Assembly (NCBI GenBank): GCA_002269645.1
Contig: NIVC01002598.1
Span: 1 to 64,000 of the forward strand
Length of the DNA: 64,000 nt
Direction of reading: 5' to 3'
DNA from: Macrostomum lignano
Taxonomy: Eukaryota
A model generated the notes under the pieces. That model was not told where the DNA came from. It ran no database searches and worked only from the letters and a program-made list of their open reading frames with translations. This document shows, one piece after another, positions 1-14,714 of this stretch; position 1 is the stretch's first letter; each line of letters starts with the position of its first letter. The position numbers and the translations under genes were made by a program.

Positions 1-476
1 TTGCTTTGGATGGGCTGTTTTGTCCATAAGGTTGTAGAACTCATTGATGAAAGGTCTTTTTCTCCCCGTTTGTAGCTCTCCCTCAGTGTTGCTGGGCATT
101 GCGGCAGTCCGTTTCTCGATCTTCTGATCGCCCATTGGACTTGGAGATGTCGCCGTTGCTGTTCAGTGGCGGCGCTGTTCCTAATGTTCATCTCCTTCCG
201 ACTGCCTTGCTTGGTTCTGCCGATGTAAACAGTGGCTTGACTAATGTGTAGGTCGTGAGCGGCTCATCGATGGTGCAATCATCCACTGTGTCTAGCTCCG
301 TCGAATACATCTGATCATCCGAAGGGTGGGTTGAATATTTGTGAGTGATTAAATAGTGGCTGCTTACGAGTAGTGCAAAAATATATTCTAAATATCAGAG
401 CGCACACCAACAGAGGAATGAATATTGTTTAAAATGAAAATTGTCCGTCTACTTCCTCCCTCCTTGACTTCAAATG

Positions 477-833
477 TCAAGGAAGTTTCACTTTGCTCCT
501 CAGATTGTATTTTTCGAGCTGTGTCGGCCTGCGCGTCCAGCTCTCTGCCTGCACGCTCACTTCCTTTGTGAATCGCTGCCTTGGCTGTCGCTGGTGGCGC
601 TGTGGGTCGCTCGGTCTGAGGTCAGGAAGCATCACATGTGGTGTTGATGTGGCCATTGGTTTCAGCCTGTCGGTGTGCACTTGAAAGGACTCCTGATTTG
701 GATCGTCGATTTTCCGGATTGTGACTGAAGTCTGACTGCTCCTCTTCACAATCTCATAGGGTCCTGTAAATTTAGCTTGGTGCTTTCCCTGTCTCATAGG
801 AATTTGCAACATAACTCTACTCCCTACTTCCAA
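477..833 (-). CDS. Integrase C-terminal GPY/F region (third frameshifted piece)
   Basis: VGSRVML..KFTGPYEIV..VHTDRLKP motif typical of gypsy integrase ends. Confidence 0.85.
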   Translation of the reverse strand: MEVGSRVMLQIPMRQGKHQAKFTGPYEIVKRSSQTSVTIRKIDDPNQESFQVHTDRLKPMATSTPHVMLPDLRPSDPQRHQRQPRQRFTKEVSVQAESWTRRPTQLEKYNLRSKVKLP

Positions 834-2425
834 TGTAGTCGGTTTGCGGTTTTCATTTGCTTTTCCGGTATTCTTTCTTGTGCGACCTGTAGGTGGTGCC
901 TCGCTATCTCTCTGGCTAGTGTTACAGCTTCTTTCATTCTAGCTGCAAATGATGGTTCATCCATGTACTTTACCAAGTTCAACTGAGTAGTAAGTTGAGT
1001 AGGCATCAGAGGTCGTCGGGCGAAAACTAACTCGAATGGCGAGTAGGTCGATGATGCTTGCTTTGCCGTGTTATATGCAAACATTGTCGCCTGCAGGTAC
1101 TTATGCCACTGGTCTGGATTCTCGGCTGTGTAGTGGCGTAACATGTTGTGCAGTGTGGAGTGTAACCGTTCCACATGATTCGCTCGAGGATTATATGGAG
1201 ATGTCAAAATATGTTTGATCCCCAATATCTCTAAGGCTTCGGCTAGTAGAGTCGCTGTGAAGTTCTTTCCATTGTCCGTGGACATCTCAATCGGGATCCC
1301 AAAAGTACAGAACACTGTGAATAGTGTCTCTGCCGTCGTTTCAGCTGTAAGATCTGGGATCGGAATGGCGAATGCGAATTTCGAAAAGCAACAAAGAATT
1401 GTAAGAATGTGTGTTACTGTTTCATTTCTCACTTTAGTGGGCACCATTGGACCCACTATGTCGACTGACAATTTGTCCATTGGTCGCATTGGGATCTCCG
1501 AAAACTGAATCAGTCCCTTATGGGTTTTTCCTGATTTGTTCCTGGCGCACTCTATGCAGTTATTGCAGAATCCTCGGATGTCGGATATCATGGTAATCCA
1601 GAAGTAGTGTCTGCGGATTCTCTCTAGGGTTTTCTCAAATCCCAAATGTGCCGCTAATGGCAATGCGTGTAGTGAATGGCAAATGGTCTCACGATACTGA
1701 AATGGTAGGATGATCTGTTGTGTCTGATCCGCTGTTCTGTGTAAAACTCCTCCAATCTCCGCGTAGTCCGCCATGTGTCTATCGATGTGGCGTCTGTACT
1801 TCGGGGCCAGTGATTCCACTGCAGATTCTCCGTTCCACATCGCTCGGATTTGTTGGCAGAACGGGTCTTCCGCCTGGGCGTCCTTGAGTGCTTGTAAGTG
1901 TGGGATTGGATGTGATATTGTGACATAATTGACTTGGTCCATTGGTTTCTCGTCGTATAACCTTGAGAGTGCGTCCGGTACCGCATGTGTGACTGATGCT
2001 CCTGGTACATATTCGATCTGTATTTGAAACTGCTGTAAGTATAGTAACCATCGCAAAATTTGGTTGTTCTGCAGTATTCTGCCTGTGAGTAAGCCTCTGA
2101 GTGGAGCATGATCTACTCTCAGTAGTGTAGGTATGGGAGCGGCGTATAAGAACTGTTCAAAGTTTCTGAATGCATGGTAGACTGCTAAAAGTTCGAGATG
2201 AGTGATTCCGTATCTCGTTTCGGCGTCTCTGAGTTGTCTACTCGTGAATGCTATCGGTCTCTCCCGTCCCATCTCATCTTTCTGCGAAAGCATCGCTCCT
2301 ATTCCCTTAGTTGAGGCGTCACTCGAAACGATGAACTGCTTACTGAAATCCGGGTGTGCTAACCTGAGGTCCTCGCTATCCATTTCTTCATAGCCTCGAA
2401 AGTGTAGTTCGCTTCCTCGGTCCAC
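824..2425 (-). CDS. Gypsy RNase H and integrase (frameshifted continuation)
   Basis: LAHPDFSKQFIVSSDAS, ELLAVY, VDHAPL, DALSR; H-x6-H..C-x2-C zinc finger; VDIVGP, TDNGKNF, VERLH. Confidence 0.93.
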   Translation of the reverse strand: MDRGSELHFRGYEEMDSEDLRLAHPDFSKQFIVSSDASTKGIGAMLSQKDEMGRERPIAFTSRQLRDAETRYGITHLELLAVYHAFRNFEQFLYAAPIPTLLRVDHAPLRGLLTGRILQNNQILRWLLYLQQFQIQIEYVPGASVTHAVPDALSRLYDEKPMDQVNYVTISHPIPHLQALKDAQAEDPFCQQIRAMWNGESAVESLAPKYRRHIDRHMADYAEIGGVLHRTADQTQQIILPFQYRETICHSLHALPLAAHLGFEKTLERIRRHYFWITMISDIRGFCNNCIECARNKSGKTHKGLIQFSEIPMRPMDKLSVDIVGPMVPTKVRNETVTHILTILCCFSKFAFAIPIPDLTAETTAETLFTVFCTFGIPIEMSTDNGKNFTATLLAEALEILGIKHILTSPYNPRANHVERLHSTLHNMLRHYTAENPDQWHKYLQATMFAYNTAKQASSTYSPFELVFARRPLMPTQLTTQLNLVKYMDEPSFAARMKEAVTLAREIARHHLQVAQERIPEKQMKTANRLHWK

Positions 2426-3036
2426 TTTAGGTTGGTCTTCGTTGCTTGTCCTTTTGAGGTCGGTGCCCCTTTGAGCATATCCGTTAGCGGTTGTACTTTC
2501 TTGGCGTATTGTGGGACATGCTTCCTAAAAAAATTGCATAGTCCGAGGAATGCCCTTAACTGAGTCACATTGTCCGGCTTGGATACCTTTTGTACTTTAT
2601 CCACCAAGGTACGATCTATCTGGATGCCGTTCTGGTCAATCTTGTGTCCCAGGAAGGTAATGCTGGGTTGCGCAAAACGACATTTCTGGAGTTTCAGCTT
2701 TAATCCGTGCTTTTTCAAGGCTTCCAGAGTACTTTTGAGTGTCTTTAGGTGGTGTTCGAAATTTTCCGTGAATACTAGCAAATCGTCCACATATGTCGAG
2801 ACTCTTTCGATGTCTTTGAGGATGATGCTAGCCGCTCTAGACAGGGCGGCTGGGCTCGACTGTAATCCCATCGGTGCCCTTAAGAAGACTAGAGTTTCTC
2901 CGTCCGGTGTAGAAATCCCGCAGTATTTTCTACTGTCCTCGTGTAGGGCCACTTGAAAGAATGCCTGGGCCATGTCTAGAGTCGTGAAGTACTTTGATCC
3001 TTTGAGTTTGGCCAGCAGATCTGGAATCCTGGGCAT
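2359..3036 (-). CDS. Gypsy reverse transcriptase core (frameshifted continuation)
   Basis: MPRIPDLL..FTTLDMAQAFFQ..PMGLQSSP..YVDDLLV..FLGH..RAFLGLCNFFRKHV. Confidence 0.93.
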   Translation of the reverse strand: MPRIPDLLAKLKGSKYFTTLDMAQAFFQVALHEDSRKYCGISTPDGETLVFLRAPMGLQSSPAALSRAASIILKDIERVSTYVDDLLVFTENFEHHLKTLKSTLEALKKHGLKLKLQKCRFAQPSITFLGHKIDQNGIQIDRTLVDKVQKVSKPDNVTQLRAFLGLCNFFRKHVPQYAKKVQPLTDMLKGAPTSKGQATKTNLKWTEEANYTFEAMKKWIARTSG

Positions 3037-6000
3037 ACACTGCCTCTCGGGACCAACAATCGTTTAAGTCCCTGAAGTCCACACACAGGCGATACACTGG
3101 TTTAGCTTCCGGTGACTCCGATTTTTTCTTGACTAGGAGAATTGGTGAAATATACGGTGTCGGTGCTTTCATGAGAATCCCTTGCATCTCCATTCTGTCT
3201 ATCACCTTCTTCAGTTCTCCTGTCAGCTGGTGTGGAATAGGATATCTCTTGTTCAGCTTCACCTCCACATTCGGTTTTATGTGGAGTTCGTGTTTCGCTA
3301 CTTCTGTAAATCCTATCTCGTCATCTGAGAGACAAAATGCTTCCTTGTTCTCCCAGAGGATTTCTCTTAGTTGTTCTTTCTGCTCCTCTGTTATCTCGGC
3401 TCCCTGCAGATTAATCGCATCTCTAAATTCTGTCTCTGACATTGCCGGTGCCTGTTCCTGATTCGCGGCTATTTCATATGTCTCTATCTCTGTCTCATAT
3501 GAACCTATGGCTGTATCCGGGTACAGAGTGATCGGTCTGGCTGATTCGTTGGATATAAGAACCTGTACTTCTCCCTTCTCGTCCGGATGTACTATCTCCT
3601 GAGTCATTCCTATCGCCTTCTTCTCGGTGATGCGCCTATCTGGCTCGAAAAGTACCGTGTCAGGCAGTTCCTCCTTTGAGTCGGTTCTGGCTGTAATTTG
3701 AGCTGTTTCCCATGGATTCAGGTTTACCACGGAGACTAGTCTGATCTTATTTGTGGCTTCTTGGGCGGCGACTGTCATGATTTCATACGATCTGCCATTT
3801 AACTGCATCTGTTGCTGTTGGTAATTAATAGACATACCCTTCTGCAACTGACTTAAGTAATCAATTCCCAAGAGTGCATGATATCTCCCAGAACTCAGAT
3901 TAGGAATGACGTGAAACTTAACGTTGGCGATTGCGTCTCCTGCTTCGACTGGTAACGTGATCATCCCGGATTGCGTGAGTTTTCCTCCGTGTACTCCTTG
4001 CAGTTCTGTCGTCGGCTTCTCGAAGCTGTCACTGTATCGGCGCGCCGTCGCTTCGTCTATCAGCGACCTCTCTGCTCCGCTGTCTATCAGTGCTCTGCAG
4101 ACTCGCGTGCCTATCTTCAGTCGCGTCACCGTGTACTTCTGGCAGTTCGTAATTGCTGCCACTATCGGCGGTGGCCATGAGCTGATCGTCGGATAAATTG
4201 ATGAAGCCAGTGGAGCAGACGGAATCATCGGTTGATGCTGTTCCTTATTTGTGGCTGGTGCCTCTGGTGCTGGGCGGCGTGGGCCCGTGTGTCTGTAGTT
4301 AGTGTCCGTGCTTGGCTGTACTAACAATTCGTGTTGTTCTCGCGTCGCCTTTATCCGTCTTTGAATTGCCCGAATTCCTGGTCGCTCGTACTTTTTCCGA
4401 TAGAGCCTGTGACAAGCTATTATGGTTTTGAGTATGATGCAGAAGTATACCCAGAGAGCGGCAGCTCCAACGGCTATGTTGAAAATATTGAGTTTTATGC
4501 CTATCCACGGCATCCAAGATGCGAAGTCATAAGTTTTGAGGGCTATGTTTGCTTCCAATGGTGGGAGGTCGAGCGTCTGTGAAGTCTTCTGCTTTGGTAG
4601 TTTAAATACCGTTCTCAGAAATTCTCTCTGGTCCTTCATCTGCGTGTACAGATCGTGCACTGTAATTGGCCTTCGGATTTCTTCTATTTTAATATCTGTT
4701 TCTGGTGTAAAGATAATCCGTTTGATATTAGGTAATTTCATAGCCTCTATTCCCCAATCTTCGTTCTTCAATTTCTTTACCTGTATAAGTTCGAAGCTGG
4801 TGAAATTTGAGTCGACCTTGTACACTTTGTCCTCTTTGGGTAACAGGTATCCAGTTCGATTCGAACAATCCTGAAAAGTGGGGTGTTCCGTCTCAATTTC
4901 CATGGTTCTTACGTCCAAAAATCCTGTACGGTTGGTCTCCGCTACTTTGTACTTCAGCGGAGGTTTGGAGAAACATCGGCTTTGATTCCAGTATGGTTGA
5001 TGGAATTCGAAGTCGGTCACTGGGATGCATTTGAAGATGACAACATGCTGAGCTATCGTTCTGGCCTTGAGGTGCTCGTCTTTGAACAGTGTCCTCACCG
5101 CTAGTGTTGGTTGCATCCTTATAAAGTCTTTAATGTATCTAAAAATGGTCTGTTGGAGTCGGCATTGCTGAAGGATTACATGACGAGTCAGATCACCAAT
5201 TCTATTTTCCATTGTAAGTTCAACACTCTGTAATTTCACTGCTAGAGTTTCCTGTGATACCACGTCTCTCTTTGCCCTCTTTGCTGTGCTCGAGTTATTA
5301 AAATTACCTTGTACTATCGATAAGAATTCTGCTTCGGATCCTTCTAGTTTAACCAACTTTCCTTGTTCTGACCTGAATAGTTTAGTTGTCGTTCCTCCGC
5401 ATTTCAGCTCCATTGAGTGTGGTGGGTGTTTAAAAGTCAAAGCGTAGGTAGCGTCCTTGGACATGAACCATCCTGTGTGTATGGTTCCTTCAATTCGCCT
5501 GTCTTCCTGGTACGGGCAGTCAATTGCGGCGCTGGGTGTCCAGGCATATCTGTACTGGCGTTCTCCAGCGACCTTGAATTGTGTGTCGTAGTATCTCAGA
5601 GCTTCCCATAGTTTGTTGGGTACTTGTCTCTCCAACGGTGCATCCTTCTCGGCCTGTAGAGTGGACTCGTGAAGACATTTTCCTATGGTGTAATTGCAAT
5701 GTCCTAGTGGGATATATAGCGATGACATTTTCTTATTCTCCACGAAGAACGGAATTTTCGTTATCAGCGTGGACGCGGATTTCGTATATCTAGTTTGGGT
5801 ACTAGCCGTTGGGTCGAATTCCTCTGTTGTCCAGATGTGAGTAGTAAAGCGTTCAGCTTTGTTCGGGGCTTTCCCATCTTCTTCAAGGATGCCATCTGGA
5901 GTTCGGTAACCTTCCTCCCAGGACTCACAATCTTCCTCTGAAACTAGATGTTTCTGCACCGTAACAGTCATTTCTGGTCTTATCACTTTAGCGGCAATCG

Positions 6001-7852
6001 TTTTTAGTGCTACGCTGGTGAAGACATACGTTTCTCGGTAACAGATCTTGAGTGTTGATCGGTGAGTGACCTGGTTTGGTCTAAAGATTGTCAGGTTGAT
6101 CGGCTGTCGGTGCTGCTGTATGCTGCTAGGCATCTTGCACTCGATGTCCGGTGGCAGCTTGAAGATCTGTGGCCTGGAGGGCTCCGGACAGTACATCGGT
6201 GTGTCCACCCAGTTCTGGTGTCTTGGGTTTATCGTCTCCGCCGTGGTGCAGAGCAATGCGAAGAGTAGTATTTTTAGCAGGAGTGCGCATATCGGTCCGG
6301 CTGGTGCCTTCCAGCCATCACTAGCCTTTCTAGCCCTGTGCTCTCGCTTTCGTCCTTCGAGCTGTGGAGCGGTCTGAACTAGGGCGATTGTCGCCGTCTT
6401 GTTCTTCCTGTTCTGTCGTCTTGCTTGTATGACGTCGCTTCTTGTCCTTGTCGGCGTTGTCTCTTCCGACGTGCTGACTGCCAAGATATGTGCTGTCTGG
6501 CTAGACTCACTCGCCAGTTGGGCTGGCTGCGGACTGGGGTCCTGGACCGTGACTTCAGCGATCCGCTTTGGCTGCTGCCATTGCTGTTGATGCCGTCCTT
6601 GATCACCCTGGCGTTGTCGGCCGCATTCCGTTGTCCAATGGTTGTGCATGTTACAGTTCTTGCAATATCGCTGGCCTCTGCACTCCTTTGCAAAGTGGCC
6701 TCTCTTTCCGCATTTGTTGCACTTAATGTTACCTCGATCTTGTCTGCCCTGTGACTGCACTTGGCCCCCGGTATTCTTACCGAGGTTCCCGTTCCTTTGG
6801 TAGCACTTGTTGGCTGTGTGGCCTATCTTGTCACAGAGTTGGCATGTCGGCCTCGGATTGCCGTCTGGGTACTTGGTTGCGGTTTCCTTCTGTGGCTGTT
6901 GAGCTCGATCTTGGGTGCGCCGGTCCGCTTGCCTGATTGTAGTCTCCATCTGTGCTACCATGGCTGTCAGCTTGCGTACGTCGTTGGAGTCCTGTTCCAA
7001 CTCTCGCAATGCTTGCCATTGAAGTGCTTCGCGCACCATCTCCGGGACTGTCTGGTAACGTCCTCTGGCTAGATATAGTCGCAATGCCGGTGTGGCATTC
7101 TGTTGCACGTGCAGCATAATGTGGTCCTGGACTATGCGTTTGTTGCGGTTGATTCTTGCGCCTCTGTCGTTCTCATTCTCACCCTCCGGCGCTGGTTCTT
7201 GGAACACTGAGTTCTCGACTAGTTGTGTGATGTCGGCGATGAACTTGTTAACATCCTCTCCTGGATGCATCCTCCTCATGGAAAGTTGGAGTACTGCCGT
7301 GGGTCGGTCCATCGCTCCAGTGTCATACAGCTCTCGGAGTTGCGTTCGCACCCGTCCGTAATCCTCTCGGACGGCTTGTGGGAGTCCTGCGTATTGATTA
7401 CGTGCGTTAGGGCGCAACATAAGTGGTAGTAGTCGGCACTTCTCTTCGTCCGTTAGACCATATGTCGCTGTCTGGAGCTCGAATTCAGTCAGCCATTTGA
7501 CAAATGGCTGTCCCATCTCGTAGTCTCCTGCCGATAACTTGAGAGCCTGGACAATGGCTGGTAGGTCCCTGCCATGTACCATGGCGAGACGCTGCTGTAG
7601 TTCTCGGACTTGGTTCTGGAGATCTTCCATTGTGTTGTCCTCGTTGTCCGAGTCTGATGAATGCTCGTTGTTGTCTTCCCACTCGTCGTTGTGGTCTTCT
7701 GGCTGATCTAACTGGTCGTGTGACAGTTGTTGCTGATCGGCGTCTCCGGGTTCTGGAGTTCTGTTAGTACCTGTTTGAATGTCTTGGTTTAGATCTCCGT
7801 TATTCATATGCTGATATTCCGGTCTATTAGTTCTTTGCGGAGTTGGCCGCAA
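2930..7852 (-). CDS. Gag-Env-protease-RT(N-terminal) polyprotein, 1640 codons open (first ATG at 7807)
   Basis: ORF track. Gag has three CCHC knuckles (about 6803-6844, 6680-6721, 6623-6664); Env about 6295-4411; protease DSG about 4073-4081; RT start PYISPILLVKK..RLCVDFRDLN. Frameshifts out near 3040. Confidence 0.93.
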   Translation of the reverse strand: MRPTPQRTNRPEYQHMNNGDLNQDIQTGTNRTPEPGDADQQQLSHDQLDQPEDHNDEWEDNNEHSSDSDNEDNTMEDLQNQVRELQQRLAMVHGRDLPAIVQALKLSAGDYEMGQPFVKWLTEFELQTATYGLTDEEKCRLLPLMLRPNARNQYAGLPQAVREDYGRVRTQLRELYDTGAMDRPTAVLQLSMRRMHPGEDVNKFIADITQLVENSVFQEPAPEGENENDRGARINRNKRIVQDHIMLHVQQNATPALRLYLARGRYQTVPEMVREALQWQALRELEQDSNDVRKLTAMVAQMETTIRQADRRTQDRAQQPQKETATKYPDGNPRPTCQLCDKIGHTANKCYQRNGNLGKNTGGQVQSQGRQDRGNIKCNKCGKRGHFAKECRGQRYCKNCNMHNHWTTECGRQRQGDQGRHQQQWQQPKRIAEVTVQDPSPQPAQLASESSQTAHILAVSTSEETTPTRTRSDVIQARRQNRKNKTATIALVQTAPQLEGRKREHRARKASDGWKAPAGPICALLLKILLFALLCTTAETINPRHQNWVDTPMYCPEPSRPQIFKLPPDIECKMPSSIQQHRQPINLTIFRPNQVTHRSTLKICYRETYVFTSVALKTIAAKVIRPEMTVTVQKHLVSEEDCESWEEGYRTPDGILEEDGKAPNKAERFTTHIWTTEEFDPTASTQTRYTKSASTLITKIPFFVENKKMSSLYIPLGHCNYTIGKCLHESTLQAEKDAPLERQVPNKLWEALRYYDTQFKVAGERQYRYAWTPSAAIDCPYQEDRRIEGTIHTGWFMSKDATYALTFKHPPHSMELKCGGTTTKLFRSEQGKLVKLEGSEAEFLSIVQGNFNNSSTAKRAKRDVVSQETLAVKLQSVELTMENRIGDLTRHVILQQCRLQQTIFRYIKDFIRMQPTLAVRTLFKDEHLKARTIAQHVVIFKCIPVTDFEFHQPYWNQSRCFSKPPLKYKVAETNRTGFLDVRTMEIETEHPTFQDCSNRTGYLLPKEDKVYKVDSNFTSFELIQVKKLKNEDWGIEAMKLPNIKRIIFTPETDIKIEEIRRPITVHDLYTQMKDQREFLRTVFKLPKQKTSQTLDLPPLEANIALKTYDFASWMPWIGIKLNIFNIAVGAAALWVYFCIILKTIIACHRLYRKKYERPGIRAIQRRIKATREQHELLVQPSTDTNYRHTGPRRPAPEAPATNKEQHQPMIPSAPLASSIYPTISSWPPPIVAAITNCQKYTVTRLKIGTRVCRALIDSGAERSLIDEATARRYSDSFEKPTTELQGVHGGKLTQSGMITLPVEAGDAIANVKFHVIPNLSSGRYHALLGIDYLSQLQKGMSINYQQQQMQLNGRSYEIMTVAAQEATNKIRLVSVVNLNPWETAQITARTDSKEELPDTVLFEPDRRITEKKAIGMTQEIVHPDEKGEVQVLISNESARPITLYPDTAIGSYETEIETYEIAANQEQAPAMSETEFRDAINLQGAEITEEQKEQLREILWENKEAFCLSDDEIGFTEVAKHELHIKPNVEVKLNKRYPIPHQLTGELKKVIDRMEMQGILMKAPTPYISPILLVKKKSESPEAKPVYRLCVDFRDLNDCWSREAVYAQDSRSAGQTQRIKVLHDSRHGPGILSSGPTRGQ
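4411..6295 (-). CDS. env: Envelope glycoprotein segment, class III fusion protein (herpes gB/chuvirus G-like), embedded in the polyprotein
   Basis: Internal signal sequence ICALLLKILLFALLCTTAE, about 12 Cys, several NxS/T sequons, furin site RAKR (about 5268-5284), gB-like QQCRLQQ..RMQPT..CIPV..CFSKPP..GFL..DC, and TM segment IFNIAVGAAALWVYFCIILKTIIAC. Confidence 0.85.
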
Positions 7853-10057
7853 ATGATATGAATGTAAATGATGCGTATTTAATCAGCTTGACTTCAACAA
7901 AGTAGTTTGTCAGTGTGTGCTCTGATCTATCTAAGATCTCACAAAGTTTTAATTGGAATTCAAATATGAGAAAAGGGGTAGAGGTGTCGGATACGTTTCC
8001 GGCCAGGTGGTGCAGTCAATATGTAAATTTTCTTGCTTTTTGCAAATAAATGAGTGCATTTTTGTCTCGCTTGTCGTAGATATGCGCGAGGCTAAATAAT
8101 ATGGTTGCAGCATTTTATACACATGCACTCTTAGCGACCAAGCATTTTGCTTTTCCGCTTTCCGCCTTATTGGCTAGTTGGGCTATGCATTTCAATCTGC
8201 TTTAAGAAATGCCTCGAGGTTGTCTCATGGACTGGCTACCTAGGTTGGGGGCACAAATACTTACCCTGCCACGCTGTGTAGTAGATCATCAGCGCTATGG
8301 GCGGGCTGTCACGTTTGCTGGGGAGCTAAGTCAGATAGACGCAATGCATAGTGCCTAAGTGAGTTCTTCCCCCCTCTGTGTCCGCGCAGTCCTTAGTGCC
8401 AAGAGTATAACTCTCCTCAGAAGGTCTACTATCCTACTGAGCCTATTGAAGCGCGCTATAACAATGAAAAGCCCTATACGGTGTACTTTTAATGCTGCAA
8501 TTCACTTGACAGGTCCTTTACCTGTGATGAGTCGGCCGGCTCCTGCAAACGCTCCTTTAGAGCATAAGCTTTAATATGTGATAATGCTGGTCAGCGCTGC
8601 CTGAATTCTTTAAATGAGTACACCTTTCATGATAATTCGACCATGGTCCTATTAAAACAACTTCCTGGTAGCCCCTCGCTATTGATGTGCGGCCTTGGTG
8701 ATTTGCTTCACCAGCCGCTAAATATTTCTCTTCTAAGGAAAATCATACCGTAACTTTGTACATAACTATTCTACTTTTTTTGTTTGTTTTTAGAATTTTA
8801 TCGAATTTTTTTGAGCTTTTTCAATGAGAAACGCACATGTCCTCTTACGACACGATGTATAGTTTACTTAGTAGAGAAACAATTGTATGACAGCACTCAT
8901 CCTGGCCTTCCGCGTTCCTTCCTCCACCGTCGGAAATTACTCAGCCATTACTGGTCGATGTCGTCAGGTTGAAAAGTGTAGACTGCTCGATAGATGACTC
9001 GTAGGTCTGGGAACCACGTATAGCGCTTCAAGTTTTGATGGTTCTTGTCTTTACTTATATTTTTCGTATAATTGGTCTAGCGGATTATTGCAGTCTAGAT
9101 GTCTTGAAGGCTATAACTCCCTAACGACTATCGACACTCAGTATACTGGCTGGCTGTGATGATCTCTCGGGATCCTTATCTTAGATTCTACTCAAGAAAT
9201 AACACAAACACTATGAGTTTTCTAATGTGTTTAACGTAACGGAATTCAAATAGAATCTCTAACTGACTCGCGCGGCGATTCTTTTTCCGCGCTCCGCTCC
9301 GATATATATAATGTCTTTAAAACCCTCGATCCGAGGGGAAGAAAATACCATAGCAACAGTACGCATGGGAATTTGGGGTGAGTGAGGTCGCAGCCTCGAG
9401 TCTAGTACCGTTATTGTCATTAAACTAGTTGGTTGGCAGGCACGCCAACCCCTTTTCTTTCATCGATCCCGCCTTCTTGTGCGGACTCGGCCTCCTCTCG
9501 ATCTCGTTCCCGATCGGGTCCGGGCGGCTCCAGTTTCTGCTGGGTTGGGTCGATGCAGGCAGCTGCAGGTCGGGGTAGGCCGGGTTGATTCCGGGAGCTC
9601 CACGTCAGCACAGCTGCGGGTCCGGTCTCAGGCGGTTCCACGTCAGCGCCTCTGCGGATCCGGTGTCAGGCAGCTCCACGTCGGCACAGCTGCTGTCATG
9701 CCGAACCGGGCCTGCGCTGAAATGAATAGTTGATCTCTGGGGGCGGATTTTGTCTAATCATTCTCCTTTTCGCTTGCTCGCACTTTCTGCTGTTGCTATT
9801 TTTGGTTTTTAGCTTTCTGCTAGCGAACTCTTAAATTCCGTTCAGATTTCTAAGTCTTATAATTTTTACCTATTGACTTAAGAAACTTTAAATCATATAG
9901 CCTTTAACAAAAATTGTAACTATTTATTGCTTTTTTAAATCTAATTCTAGTTCTAAATCTAAAATCATATTTATTCTACCAGTTAGTCAATAATTTTATA
10001 ATTTCTTCTTTTTAAAGGTTAAAGCACAAGGACTATCAAAATTTATTCACAAGGCAA

Positions 10058-10776
10058 ATGAATCAAATCAAATGTCTTCCATGCTTTCAGTTGTCTCCAA
10101 TGCTTTCAACATCTGTGCCAGCAACTCATGCCAGTCTGCAGCAGCGCTCGCAGCAGCTGCAGCAGGAGAAGCAGCGCCTGATGCAGATGCTTGATGAGCG
10201 ACTCACTGGTCTGTTAGACATCCTTGGCAACGACTCTGACAGCCAATCCCACCCAGTGCAGCAGCCGTCTCCATCGTCAGACGATTCGCCAAAGCAGTCA
10301 GCGGCAGCAGAAGCCAGCAAGGCTCGGCAGGATCTGCCAGAGAAAGAGTTCCGCCAGCGTTGCAGTCTGCTCACCGAATTATTCGAACTGTCCCATTTTC
10401 GCACCCTTCAAAACGTATTTATTGCCTTGATGTCGCTCTACGGTTTGAGCACTCTGATCTGCGACACCATGGACGGCAAGTCCCTTGTTGACACCCTGTC
10501 GCTGCCGTTGCTGCGCTGGGCGTTCGGCCGTCTGCCCGATGCCATCGCAATCTGGATGGCGATGCACGCGGCGGTGCTGCTGGCAGCCTACCCAGCCTAC
10601 CATCACTATGCCGCCGCGCCACCTGCCTCCAGGCGCTGGCGACTCGCCTGGTTGGCTTCGTACATCGCTTTTCAGGTGGGTCGTTTGTGTCAAATCCATG
10701 AAGTTAGTTAGTTAGTTAGTTAGTTAGTTAGGCAGTTAGTTAGCTAGCTAGCTAGCTAGTTAGTTAGTTAGTTAGT

Positions 10777-10820
<44 letters not shown>

Positions 10821-10851
10821 CCAGTTAGTTAGTTAGTTAGTTAGTTAGTTG

Positions 10852-10929
<78 letters not shown>

Positions 10930-10958
10930 CAGTTAGTTAGTTAGTTAGTCAGTTAGCC

Positions 10959-10989
<31 letters not shown>

Positions 10990-10994
10990 CAGTC

Positions 10995-11026
<32 letters not shown>

Positions 11027-11027
11027 G

Positions 11028-11072
<45 letters not shown>

Positions 11073-11073
11073 G

Positions 11074-11108
<35 letters not shown>

Positions 11109-11123
11109 GTAGTTAGTTAGTTG

Positions 11124-11196
<73 letters not shown>

Positions 11197-11197
11197 G

Positions 11198-11229
<32 letters not shown>

Positions 11230-11230
11230 C

Positions 11231-11264
<34 letters not shown>

Positions 11265-11303
11265 CTAGTTAGTTAGTCAGTTAGTTAGTTAGTTAGTTAG
11301 TTG

Positions 11304-11345
<42 letters not shown>

Positions 11346-11346
11346 C

Positions 11347-11385
<39 letters not shown>

Positions 11386-11442
11386 CAGTCAGTTAGTTAG
11401 TTAGTTAGTCAGTTAGCCAGTTAGTTAGTTAGTTAGTTAGTC

Positions 11443-11474
<32 letters not shown>

Positions 11475-11497
11475 GGTTAGTTAGTTGGTTAGTTAGT

Positions 11498-11548
<51 letters not shown>

Positions 11549-11549
11549 G

Positions 11550-11580
<31 letters not shown>

Positions 11581-11629
11581 GTAGGTAGTTAGTTAGTTGG
11601 TTAGTTAGTTAGTTAGTTAGTTAGTTAGG

Positions 11630-11681
<52 letters not shown>

Positions 11682-11682
11682 C

Positions 11683-11732
<50 letters not shown>

Positions 11733-11778
11733 CTGATTAGTTAGTTAGTTAGTTAGTCAGTTAGTTAGTTAGTTAGTC

Positions 11779-11836
<58 letters not shown>

Positions 11837-11849
11837 GTAGTTAGTTAGG

Positions 11850-11880
<31 letters not shown>

Positions 11881-11885
11881 CTAGC

Positions 11886-11917
<32 letters not shown>

Positions 11918-11968
11918 AGTTAGTTAGTTAGGTAGTTAGTTAGTTAGTTAGTTAGTTAGCTAGCTAGC

Positions 11969-12007
<39 letters not shown>

Positions 12008-12011
12008 CTGA

Positions 12012-12048
<37 letters not shown>

Positions 12049-12049
12049 C

Positions 12050-12087
<38 letters not shown>

Positions 12088-12092
12088 CTAGC

Positions 12093-12124
<32 letters not shown>

Positions 12125-12175
12125 AGTTAGTTAGTTAGGTAGTTAGTTAGTTAGTTAGTTAGTTAGCTAGCTAGC

Positions 12176-12214
<39 letters not shown>

Positions 12215-12218
12215 CTGA

Positions 12219-12255
<37 letters not shown>

Positions 12256-12256
12256 C

Positions 12257-12353
<97 letters not shown>

Positions 12354-14714
12354 ATGTAACCTGTCCATACTTTTACTGCTGAGCAGCTCCGCTCCCAAAC
12401 GATCTCGTAATAATCAAGTTTTCTTGCAACCAAACCGATGTGCTTTTGTTAATATATTATTGTAAATATTATAACATATATTATTATTCTATTACAAACC
12501 TGAGCGTGGCACCGGTTTTGTTTTCGTCGTTGTAAGTGACCTTTAAAATGCTAGTTGCGCTACTGTGGGCAGTAGCGTATTCAGAAAATGCGCAATTAAA
12601 GCTTTTGGGAAAGTGCTTTGACGATACAAGCAAACTCTGCAATACTTTATTGTGAACTCTCCCACACTTGCAAAAAATTGCAGCTTGGCTTCCTCGTGCT
12701 GCCGCTGCGCTCCCTGCTCGCCGTCCAGCTGCCTCCGGCCTCCGCCATCATTGTGCTCACCGAACAGAGTCGCCTAATGATGAAGCTGCACGCGTTCGTG
12801 TGGGAGAGCGCCAGCCGGGGCGGACCATGTCCGAGCTTTGGTCGCTTTCTCTACTTCCTGTTCGCGCCCACGCTGGTGTACAGGGATGCTTATCCGCAGG
12901 ACAGGCCAACCAGGTGAGATGGCTGTTTAAGATGCTGTGTACAGGATTCCGCAGCCAGCAGGAAGTTAACGCAAACCCCTATCAGGAAAATAAAAATCAT
13001 AGTATGTCCTAGACAATGCATGACTCTAACAGCCCGGCGCGGTCGTCAACTGCTGTTTTAATACACAAAAACATTTCTCTTCAGCTTCTGTCCAACAAAT
13101 AATTATCCTGATGTTTTTGGTGACCAGTCGTATTAACGACTCAGCAACTGTTGAAAAGGCTTTGATAATTCGTCAATAGTGCGACGTGACCATTCAATGG
13201 CTGCTTCTATCTCTTCGTCATCCATGGTGATGCCTTGCAATGTCCTAAGCCGCTGAAGGACTTATTTCAAACGTATGCTATGCTCTTCTAATGTCCTTCC
13301 CATCACAATGATATCATCGAGATAACGAGCCAGCTTCCCCTGTCAATCATTGCAGTACACTGTGCATTACATACTGGAAGGTCTTGAAGCAATGAAGAAA
13401 ATTGTGACGCTTTTTTCGGTCGACTCAAGACCATTTCAAACGAATGTTCTAACGAAATCAACAAAACAATCTGTTTCAAGGAGAGGATTTTGATGGATTT
13501 CCGTTTAACGGAGAGGATTTTTATGGATACCTCTATTTCACGGAGAGGATTTAAAAAATATCTGTTTCACGAGGAGTCTAATATGGAGGAATTAGAATAA
13601 GTCTAATAGGAGTCTAATATGGGCCAGCTAACAAAGGTCTCATTATCATCAATTTGAATAGAATTCTTAATAAATGCCTACTGTTGGGCTTCTATCACAT
13701 TTATCCCATGTTTATGCCTATCCCGTCCAGGTGGCGCTACGTTGCCTCTAACCTGGGCCAGGTGGCCGGCTGCGCCCTGTTCGCCCACCTGCTGCTGGTC
13801 CGCTACTGCCTGCCTGTGTTCTCACACTGGCGCCGGCCCAGCCTCGCACACTTCATCCACACAGTGTTCCAGTCTGCTTTGCCGGGCGGCCTAGTCCTGC
13901 TACTAGCCTTCTTCGCCGTGCTGCACTCCTGGTTGAATGCGTTCGCCGAGATGTTGCGCTTCGGCGATCGGCAGTTCTATCGCGACTGGTGGAATGTCAC
14001 CTCGTTTCGCAGCTGGTACAGGTGAGACAGCTGTTTGGCGGGTGTCAGTTATATCTCAGGTGAGACAGCTGTTTGGCGGGTGTCAGTTATATCTCAGGTG
14101 AGACAGCTGTTTGGCGGGGGTCAGTTATATCTCAGGTGAGACAGCTGTTTGGCGGGTGTCAGTTATATCTCAGGTGAGACAGCTGTTTGGCGGGTGTCAG
14201 TTATATCTCAGGTGAGACAGCTGTTTGGCGGGTGTCAGTCAGTCTCAGGTGTCAGGTGCTAGTACGAGCAGCTACTATCGCAACTATGAAGGCCAACTCT
14301 ATGGCCCAACCCCCCCCCCGCAGAACCTGGAACACAGTAGTGCATGATTGGCTGTACGCCTACGTGTACAGAGAGCTGTGCCTCCGCTTCGGCAAGCGGT
14401 CCAGTTCCCTAGCAACCGGCTGCGTGTTCCTGCTCTCCTCCCTATTCCATGAGTACATTTTGGCATTCAGCTTGGGCTTCTTCTTTCCGGCTCTGTTTGT
14501 CTTCTTCTGCGGCGCCGGGTTCGGTTTGATGTTCGCCAACGGGCGCTCCCGGTTCTGGTCCGTGTTCGTGTGGGCCAGCCTGTTCCTTGGCATGGGCGCT
14601 CTCATGTGCCTGTACAGCATGGAGTGGTTCGCCAGAAGGAACTGCCCCACAGCTTATCCTGGTCGGCCCGTTCTGGACTTCCTGGTGCCGCGATCGTTCA
14701 CGTGTCCCATGTGA
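10058..14714 (+). CDS. SOAT: Sterol O-acyltransferase (ACAT/SOAT, MBOAT family), about 509 aa
   Basis: Phase-consistent GT-AG exons 10058-10675, 12684-12913, 13731-14021, 14324-14714. Motifs FLFAPTLVYRD, FYRDWWN, RTWNTVVHDWLY and catalytic HEY. Exact start uncertain (10058 vs 10100, or an upstream exon). Confidence 0.93.
10703..12353. repeat. (GTTA)n tetranucleotide microsatellite, about 1.65 kb, in SOAT intron 1
   Basis: Direct reading; occasional GTCA/GCTA/GGTA variants. Confidence 0.99.
13110..13450 (-). pseudogene. Decayed gypsy RT fragment in SOAT intron 2
   Basis: Minus strand reads LARYLDDIIVMGRTLEEHSIRLK*VLQRLR around 13240-13340. Confidence 0.65.
14019..14246 (+). repeat. 38-bp tandem repeat (about 6 copies); each unit contains CAG|GTGAG, the SOAT exon 3 donor
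   Basis: Unit caggtgagacagctgtttggcgggtgtcagttatatct starting at 14019, 14057, 14095 and onward. Confidence 0.95.

Follow-up and report, generated by a model that had tools for sequence, protein, structure and literature searches.

Is an envelope gene that lies in frame between gag and the protease a genuine part of the retroelement found in the window (64,000 nucleotides of Macrostomum lignano, contig NIVC01002598.1, positions 1 to 64,000), is such an order new, and how would an element built in this way sort and package its proteins? The features on which the answers depend are listed in Table 1.

Table 1. Features of the element, with positions in the window; aa numbers refer to the 1640-codon frame.
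Feature	Position	Strand	Basis or remark
Start of second ORF, 3' of integrase	1..310	-	Two pieces, cut by contig start
Integrase C-terminal part, fourth frame	477..938	-	PF22938, E 0.0012, below its cut-off
RNase H and integrase, third frame	824..2524	-	PF17917, PF17921, PF00665
Reverse transcriptase core, second frame	2359..3063	-	PF00078, E 3.3e-26
Gag-Env-PR-(RT start) open frame	2930..7852	-	1640 codons up to stop
Aspartic protease, DSG at aa 1257	3839..4129	-	Pfam retroviral aspartyl protease, aa 1242-1338
Putative cytosolic Env tail / linker to protease	4133..4414	-	Read from sequence
PSAP, aa 1211-1214	4211-4222	-	In Env tail, before protease
IYPTI, aa 1219-1223, and WP, aa 1226-1227	within 4133..4414	-	In Env tail, read from sequence
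Env transmembrane segment, aa 1123-1146, then basic residues	4415..4486	-	Hydropathy
Furin-type site RAKR, aa 859-862	5267..5278	-	Also at equivalent place in other families
Env ectodomain, predicted gB-type class III fusion glycoprotein	4523..6238	-	Profile, Foldseek, structural alignment
Internal signal sequence, aa 518-538	6239..6301	-	Hydropathy; putative cleavage site
Nucleocapsid, three CCHC knuckles (aa 337, 378, 397)	6623..6844	-	Pfam and motif reading
Gag capsid domain, aa 95-330	6863..7570	-	Structure model and Foldseek
Primer-binding site, tRNA-Glu	9004..9016	-	12/13 bases pair with host tRNA-Glu 3' end plus CCA
5' LTR, 843 bp, ends TATA...TATA	9019..9861	-	Aligns with the 5' and 3' LTRs of sister copies
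Target-site duplication, 5 bp, one side	9862..9866	.	Compared with empty allelic loci

The first-pass annotation had described a single frame of 1640 codons leading from Gag through a signal and an Env with furin site and transmembrane (TM) segment to the protease and the start of RT, and the ORF, Pfam and hydropathy analyses agree with this description. The first ATG, which is the likely start, is codon 16 (window 7807). Hydropathy in a 19-aa window exceeds 1.6 at two peaks only, aa 518 and aa 1123, and the internal signal has a hydrophobic core preceded by basic residues, with small residues at -3/-1. The segment aa 541-1110 of Env has 14 Cys and 7 sequons for N-glycosylation. The Gag of the window copy gave no match in Pfam and no useful match in a profile search of solved structures. 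The model of its capsid (pLDDT 82.7) recovered retroviral, Arc or PNMA2 capsids throughout the Foldseek matches listed, the best at an E of only 0.014. The open frame departs from RT near aa 1598, its final ~40 codons being off-frame, and pol continues in three other frames, one each for RT, RNase H-integrase and the integrase C-terminal part; the window copy is thus broken in pol as assembled. The second ORF is 253 aa long in a near-identical copy, and the Pfam search found no family for it. A Peptidase_C48-like identity was not accepted for this ORF; the atlas matches of 0.90 came with low recognition (Peptidase_C48 makes up 17-28% of cluster members) and included other clusters.

The pol order, PR-RT-RNase H-integrase, is that of Ty3/Gypsy elements (Metaviridae). 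With the twin copy as query, RT matched among solved structures Ty3 RT (E 7e-54) before foamy virus (5e-37) and MLV (4e-23), and BEL/Pao RT was absent among the matches listed. The Ty3/Gypsy identity proposed at first reading is supported, and the element is an env-bearing Ty3/Gypsy element, which may be called an endogenous retrovirus-like 'errantivirus' if the term is taken broadly. Of the features of BEL/Pao elements with gB-like env, the Pao-type protease/RNase H region (Peptidase_A17) had no match in the frames of the window or in three full-length relatives, where Ty3-type RNase H and integrase models matched; in the search for a Pao-type Gag, DUF1759 matched weakly (E 0.0016) in 2/7 Gag pieces.

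The window contains the 5' LTR only, the 3' LTR being ~1.9 kb outside it; the polypurine tract was read in sister copies, beyond the window. Seven full-length matches to the 5' LTR, itself counted, are present at 99-100% within the same genome, and LTR pairs are 99.1-99.9% identical in all six copies compared. Two of three allelic loci are empty, and the 5-mer of the target site occurs there once, joined to the flank downstream of copy G000:C4628. The element is a young, recent insertion. This copy, G000:C4628, was not counted as independent.

Ten copies, picked for long frames and for spread over families, were fetched. All ten have the order gag-env-PR-RT-RH-IN at Env identities of 24-100%, and in six a single frame spans the knuckles, Env and integrase. 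Therefore, the order is neither an artefact nor a nested insertion, and the independent copies that the first-pass annotation called for do exist, deeply diverged ones among them. The M. lignano genome holds 72 Env matches, of which 13 lie within stop-free frames of 2370-2538 codons, so that the open frame is not due to chance. The window's own family comprises three copies, each broken somewhere as assembled. Compared with the nearest other family, Env is 61% identical in protein and 65-66% in DNA, unbroken across 610 codons. Signal-like and TM segments, as judged by hydropathy, flank Env in every family, bearing out the signal and TM proposed earlier, which are conserved; a segment equivalent to the internal signal is present in nine other copies besides the twin of the window's family. 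The linker from nucleocapsid to signal differs in length by >100 residues among four families and carries an in-frame duplication in one, yet is always open, which fits ribosomes reading through it. The frame is also open from TM into protease in every family read. Outside the genome, 15 of 24 proteins scanned have a protease or RT match on one chain with the Env match and after it; the 24 were the longer ones among 66 matches. The gag-env-pol order is also present in named nematode proteins of Globodera, Caenorhabditis and Meloidogyne, all of them Env matches.

Env is, by its modelled fold, a gB-type, class III fusion glycoprotein. Pfam placed a Monjiviricetes fusion glycoprotein at aa 873-1014 (E 3.5e-8), and the profile search matched EBV gB (E 2.4e-12). 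The Env model, of middling quality (pLDDT 67.9, pTM 0.42; TM-scores 0.27-0.38), matched HCMV gB in Foldseek (E 2.9e-19) and aligned with prefusion HCMV gB at Z 10.1 and an rmsd of 7.6 over 394 residues; its top viral match was a Nyavirus glycoprotein. A single-sequence search of solved structures with Env returned nothing below E 0.6, gB being found by profile and fold only. Families that are 25% identical retain the whole gB fold, the furin site and the cysteines. The fusion-protein fold anticipated for this segment is thus supported by profile, Foldseek and structural alignment.

The order itself is not new, a possibility that the first-pass annotation had allowed for. GAG-ENV-POL elements with an HSV/gB-type Env are published for Platyhelminthes, Nematoda and Bryozoa, according to the accessible part of the survey of Chary and Hayashi (eLife 2026, PMC13524379). 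Similar to these, the window element possesses a Ty3/Gypsy pol, a gB-type Env with its ectodomain between signal and TM (by hydropathy only), the GAG-ENV-POL order, a flatworm host and recent multi-copy insertions. The element forms no new class, and since the layout is already in print, interest resting on its novelty falls. The accessible text of PMC13524379 has no occurrence of in-frame polyprotein, topology, Env tail or late domains, and calls the transmission route of such elements unknown; the value of the present set is that it is young, spans multiple families and resides in a tractable animal. Platyhelminthes_Rhabditophora_Mlig_errantivirus_2 is the sole Macrostomum element among 9 Platyhelminthes rows in the supplementary table as accessible (PMC13524379). 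Its listed 12-nt PBS equals that of our L036 family, the LTRs are about 863 and 855 bp, and both elements are about 10.6 kb; from this agreement it is probably L036, a sister family with the same layout. The window family differs from Mlig_errantivirus_2 in Env (27% identical) and RT-RNase H (38-39%), in the number of knuckles (three against one), in its PBS for tRNA-Glu, in its LTR ends (TATA...TATA against TG...CA), in its TSD (5 bp against 4 bp) and in its second ORF.

The nematode NERVs are also similar to the window family. As Sacco et al. 2022 (J Gen Virol) are said to have defined them, NERVs have gag-env-pro-pol in one continuous ORF, encode a nyamivirus-like glycoprotein and carry a further ORF. 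The continuous ORF is shared, and the reported glycoprotein agrees with the Nyavirus fold match of the window Env, whose identity to theirs is 25-27% over part of the length. In the way it works, the window element resembles a NERV, yet it is not classed as one, its host being a flatworm and not a nematode. Its best relative in the database carries the label Macrostomum lignano, and one locus of the same genome agrees with that relative nearly letter by letter when compared by eye.

The observations as a whole are best explained, and rather probably so, by one Gag-Env-PR-RT-RH-IN polyprotein threaded into the ER, with Gag and Env-tail-Pol cytosolic and budding driven by Env. Gag would be translated first, in the cytosol, until the internal signal directs the ribosome to the ER, into which the ectodomain would pass, to be glycosylated and later cleaved by furin. 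TM and its basic flank would halt transfer and leave the tail and the entire Pol cytosolic, attached to the Env tail. Signal peptidase would free Gag or leave it membrane-held via the signal stub. Gag and Env trimers could then assemble at one membrane, Pol being packaged as Env cargo and not as Gag-Pol. For budding, the tail would recruit host ESCRT through its P(S/T)AP and YPx(I/L) motifs, PR, RT and IN would then be released by the protease, and the gB-type Env would take the particle into another cell, presumably germline-ward. Processing by signal peptidase with a tethered Pol is consistent with all observations. The frame kept open through a variable linker and Env into Pol argues for the one-polyprotein explanation. 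Retroviruses require an excess of Gag. Unlike in retroviruses, a single frame yields Gag:Env:Pol at 1:1:1, which is a point against it. In alphaviruses and flaviviruses, membrane insertion sorts a structural polyprotein that holds the capsid, an internal signal, the glycoprotein and cytosolic enzymes in a single chain. The likeness to these viruses drawn in the first-pass annotation holds for the polyprotein strategy but not for the class of Env, since the proteins are unrelated and the viral fusogens belong to class II, whereas the present one is of class III, gB/nyamivirus-like.

The motifs of the Env tail, which may be late domains, recur among families. P(S/T)AP is present between TM and protease in six of seven families, three of the six examined after the late-domain idea arose, and the seventh has PPAP; (L/I)YPx(I/L) is present in the tail of 5/7. 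The motifs are short, were scored by eye and lie within a proline-rich stretch, and the seven families are related, representing three deep lineages. Neither P(S/T)AP nor YPx(I/L) occurs in the tails of the seven outside gag-env-pol homologues read, so that the motifs are not required for the layout itself. Their presence is hinting at ESCRT recruitment by Env and not by Gag. Such motifs in an Env tail were not found in print in the literature searched, and the possible budding signal may be new. We tentatively suggest, as a possibility still short of probable, that Pol enters the particle on the Env tail, that this tail instead of Gag bears the ESCRT late domains, and that it may be an old p6-like Gag end, severed by the insertion that put env between nucleocapsid and protease. 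If so, this would be an enveloped retro-element, currently active in a laboratory flatworm, with budding and enzyme loading both bound to its glycoprotein. Working late domains would offer a clue to the budding and enzyme packing of one-frame gag-env-pol elements, a subject not found addressed in the literature searched.

Three other ways of using the same genes were considered. Splicing of env out of some RNA would give an ordinary cytosolic Gag-Pol, with Env made from unspliced RNA. The ratio problem would then vanish, an open frame over env would be needed here too, and functional splice sites are retained in the single-ORF element Cer1, according to the accessible part of PMC10309623. Nonetheless, splicing does not demand the open stretch from TM to protease, the conserved motifs of the tail count against it as well, and we regard it as unlikely. 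Leaky targeting, in which the signal is often missed, would make Gag and Pol capsids from a cytosolic full-length precursor and Env from the targeted fraction alone. The signal lies deep in the chain (aa 600-660 in other families), and two protein pools could come from one RNA with splicing unnecessary. However, every family has a strong hydrophobic core in the signal (means of 2.4-3.6 over 13 residues) and a 14-Cys ectodomain left in the cytosol would be expected to misfold, making leaky targeting a doubtful, distinctly unlikely account. Processing could also proceed as in the polyprotein explanation with budding into internal membranes, the element being confined to the cell or syncytium and Env serving no cell-to-cell spread. 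This would suit the transmission route called unknown in the survey and the dependence of herpes gB on partner proteins, as stated in its accessible part (PMC13524379), but the retention of an entire gB fold, furin site and cysteines at 25% identity makes it quite improbable.

That an unrelated insertion nested in an ordinary gag-pol element, or a chimera made in assembly, accounts for Env is hardly credible: local assembly errors do occur (7 small indels and 4 substitutions between the window copy and its twin, whose two ends derive from different insertion sites), but diverged copies and nematode proteins with the same order refute it, the 8 closest RT matches covering most of the query all adjoin an Env match, and three close RT matches without Env are 5'-truncated fragments that lack Gag as well. 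A search of the close matches to RT, Gag and ORF2 for autonomous relatives without Env yielded nothing but copies that are truncated or have internal deletions, apart from a gag-pol element with two knuckles, which is distant. Of 24 sequencing runs listed, 18, from 7 studies, contain at least half of the words of window positions 3100-9000; no RNA run was among the holders listed.

On the minus strand of the window, the element carries a 1640-codon frame with three CCHC knuckles, hydrophobic peaks in the signal and transmembrane (TM) regions, a RAKR site and a DSG motif, as the first-pass annotation had claimed for a frame from Gag to the start of RT. The identities assigned there to Gag, a Cys-rich glycoprotein and a protease were borne out by Pfam, profile search and fold models. 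The frame departs from RT near aa 1598, and three further frames of the window copy then hold RT, RNase H-integrase and the integrase tail. Over 7383 columns, the window copy differs from its near-identical twin, G000:C4628 (pieces L043 and L044), by 4 substitutions and 7 small indels, each 1-2 bases long. Because indels exceed substitutions, the comparison suggests assembly error as their cause.

Positions of the element's features (aa along the 1640-codon frame; L, loci of the same genome)
Feature	Position	Strand	Source
1640-codon frame	window 2930-7852	minus	frame reading
CCHC knuckles (3)	aa 337, 378, 397		frame scan
Hydrophobic peaks (2)	aa 518, 1123		frame scan
RAKR	aa 859		frame scan
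Protease motif DSG	aa 1257		frame scan
Monjiviricetes fusion glycoprotein	aa 873-1014		Pfam
Aspartyl protease	aa 1242-1338		Pfam
5' LTR	window 9019-9861		match to LTRs of sister copies
Second ORF, 3' of integrase, family-specific	window 1-310	minus	
Second ORF, other loci	L044:769-1530; L050:4543-5325; L047:8508-8942; L079:8606-9610		

The genome of M. lignano holds 72 Env matches out of 251 candidates, thirteen of them within stop-free frames of 2370-2538 codons. Ten copies, picked for long frames and family spread, were fetched. All ten have the order gag-env-PR-RT-RH-IN at Env identities of 24-100%, which upholds Env between Gag and protease as the architecture of the element, and six keep a single frame from the knuckles through integrase. 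The gag-env-pol order is, as judged from these copies, a family trait. The three copies of the window's own family are all broken somewhere, yet no junction is out of frame in more than one of them. Env is flanked by a signal-like segment and a TM in every family. The linker from NC to the signal stays open over a length range of more than 100 residues between families, and bears an in-frame duplication in one. A search for Env-less close relatives found truncated or deleted copies only. One continuous gag-env-pro-pol ORF was reportedly described in nematode elements by Sacco et al. in 2022. In one lineage (L040, L076, L077, L080 and the protein P0002), Env also possesses a mucin-like Thr-rich insert of 200-270 aa between two furin-type sites.

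Outside proteins matching Env numbered 66, the named ones belonging to Macrostomum lignano, Globodera, Caenorhabditis and Meloidogyne. By eye, one locus of the genome is nearly letter-for-letter like the M. lignano protein. Among 24 long outside proteins scanned, a protease or RT match lies downstream of the Env match in 15 (with protease matches on both sides in one), and neither was detected in nine.

Env is a class III fusogen. A structure check on the fusion-protein fold had been proposed, and a gB fold was found. As a single sequence Env had no match among solved structures; a 20-sequence profile matched EBV gB (E 2.4e-12), and herpesvirus gB filled 46 of the 47 rows of that search. For the Env model (pLDDT 67.9, pTM 0.42), Foldseek gave gB matches with E 2.9e-19 and TM-scores of 0.27-0.38, and VIA-align superposed 394 residues on prefusion HCMV gB with Z 10.1 and an rmsd of 7.6; the model's top match among viral entries was a Nyavirus glycoprotein. 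The model of Gag aa 95-330 (pLDDT 82.7) matched retroviral, Arc or PNMA2 capsids in all matches listed, the best E being only 0.014. The nearest solved structure to the twin's RT-RNase H is Ty3 (E 7e-54).

The frame, with one internal signal and one TM with a basic flank, is the basis of a topology model whose steps follow standard membrane-protein biogenesis. Gag would remain in the cytosol and the Env ectodomain would enter the ER, while the Env tail and Pol would stay cytosolic and attached to Env. Signal peptidase, furin and the element's own protease would make the cuts, and Pol would get into particles together with Env. The model leaves a Gag:Env:Pol ratio of 1:1:1 unexplained. As a whole, including tail motifs for budding, we consider it fairly probable. 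Splicing of env out of the RNA is an unlikely alternative for this element; the single-ORF element Cer1 undergoes splicing, according to an excerpt of PMC10309623. Leaky targeting is slightly less likely again, budding without spread is improbable, and an artefact is very nearly dismissed.

The tail between TM and protease comprises 90-110 residues. PSAP or PTAP is present in six of the seven families compared (window, L035/L036, L038, P0002/L076, L077 and L040/L080), L033 having PPAP instead; (L/I)YPx(I/L) occurs in five and is missing in L077 and L040. These motifs were scored visually and with no shuffled sequences as a control; the stretch is rich in proline, and the families are related to each other. 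Three families were examined only once the late-domain idea had formed, and all three have PSAP. P(S/T)AP and LYPxL are sequence patterns of late domains that bind TSG101 and ALIX, respectively, and the tail motifs are candidate examples. By eye, neither P(S/T)AP nor (L/I)YPx(I/L) was detected between TM and protease in seven outside gag-env-pol proteins. The motifs sharpen the proposed model of Env-borne Pol. The boldest proposal, in which the Env tail would bring Pol into particles and also recruit ESCRT, is tentative and rather doubtful; if true, the element would merit greater attention.

A Trp-Pro pair near the tail end (window aa 1226-1227) was seen by eye in all seven families and in five of seven outside homologues (P0015, P0039, P0043, P0058, P0061), a hint that the Env-protease junctions go back to one origin, despite a published pol tree that is not monophyletic. 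The Globodera protein P0039 shows, by eye, two extra hydrophobic stretches between Env TM and protease; their even count would leave the protease cytosolic.

According to Chary and Hayashi (eLife 2026, PMC13524379), elements of Nematoda, Bryozoa and Platyhelminthes have solely Env of the gB type, are arranged GAG-ENV-POL and do not form a monophyletic group, the nematode elements being credited to Sacco et al. 2022. The unusual architecture noted in the first-pass annotation is real and rightly read, and not novel in kind. The table of that paper contains nine flatworm elements, one from Macrostomum. The latter is probably the diverged sister family L036, because the two have the same PBS and are similar in the lengths of LTR and whole element. 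Env of L036 is 27% identical to that of the window's family, which possesses three knuckles, a tRNA-Glu primer, TATA ends and its own second ORF. The window's family looks to be missing from the published table and new among gB-type GAG-ENV-POL elements. The accessible text is silent on polyprotein, single ORF, late domain, ESCRT, PTAP and cytoplasmic tail, on which its figures and repository files may bear. Searches with thin coverage of subscription literature found no paper joining late domain, ESCRT, gypsy and LTR retrotransposon, and none on envelope-bearing Macrostomum LTR elements.

The window element is a young LTR insertion. Its 3' LTR falls beyond the contig start; LTR pairs are 99.1-99.9% identical in all six copies compared. 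The primer-binding site (PBS) fits tRNA-Glu of the host, with 12 of 13 bases matching. Two of the three loci with the element's flank are without the element and have the 5-bp target once. The downstream flank of twin G000:C4628 comes from the window insertion site (window 9862) and its upstream flank does not; therefore the twin is not an independent witness, and it was rejected as an independent copy. Its mixed flanks may reflect either an assembly join or recombination between two near-identical insertions.

The window's family and the nearest other family (61% Env identity) have TATA at both LTR ends and 5-bp TSDs, not TG...CA (window 9019-9861; L041-L046, L049-L052). LTRs of the L036 family have TG...CA ends and a 4-bp TSD. 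Compared with window 477-7852, copy G000:C1674 (L031) shows 98% identity in env DNA but about 94.5% across the coding region as a whole, and its LTR is 86% identical; these values suggest a recent exchange of env between subfamilies.

The second ORF is of one type with 253-260 aa, no known family, 43% identity between two families and 28 genome matches; another, of 144 aa, is rich in Cys and matches RING weakly (E 0.0016), and a third is a 334-aa protein without family. An internally deleted derivative, L070:5798-8893 (also L072), spans ~5.96 kb repeat to repeat with an open 1031-codon frame. In this frame the integrase tail directly follows Gag, the signal and the half of Env that ends at the furin site. 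This frame length recurs in five Gag matches, not necessarily separate insertions, and L075, of another family, has a similar fusion. The derivative could be either a non-autonomous rider or a source of a secreted Env half.

The window element neighbours a host MBOAT gene (window 10016-14025, plus strand), presumably SOAT-like by motif, with an exon-like frame of this gene ~150 bp away. PF03062 of this gene was found in a later exon, and the insertion is missing from two other alleles. Long simple and minisatellite arrays are numerous in window 10700-64000.
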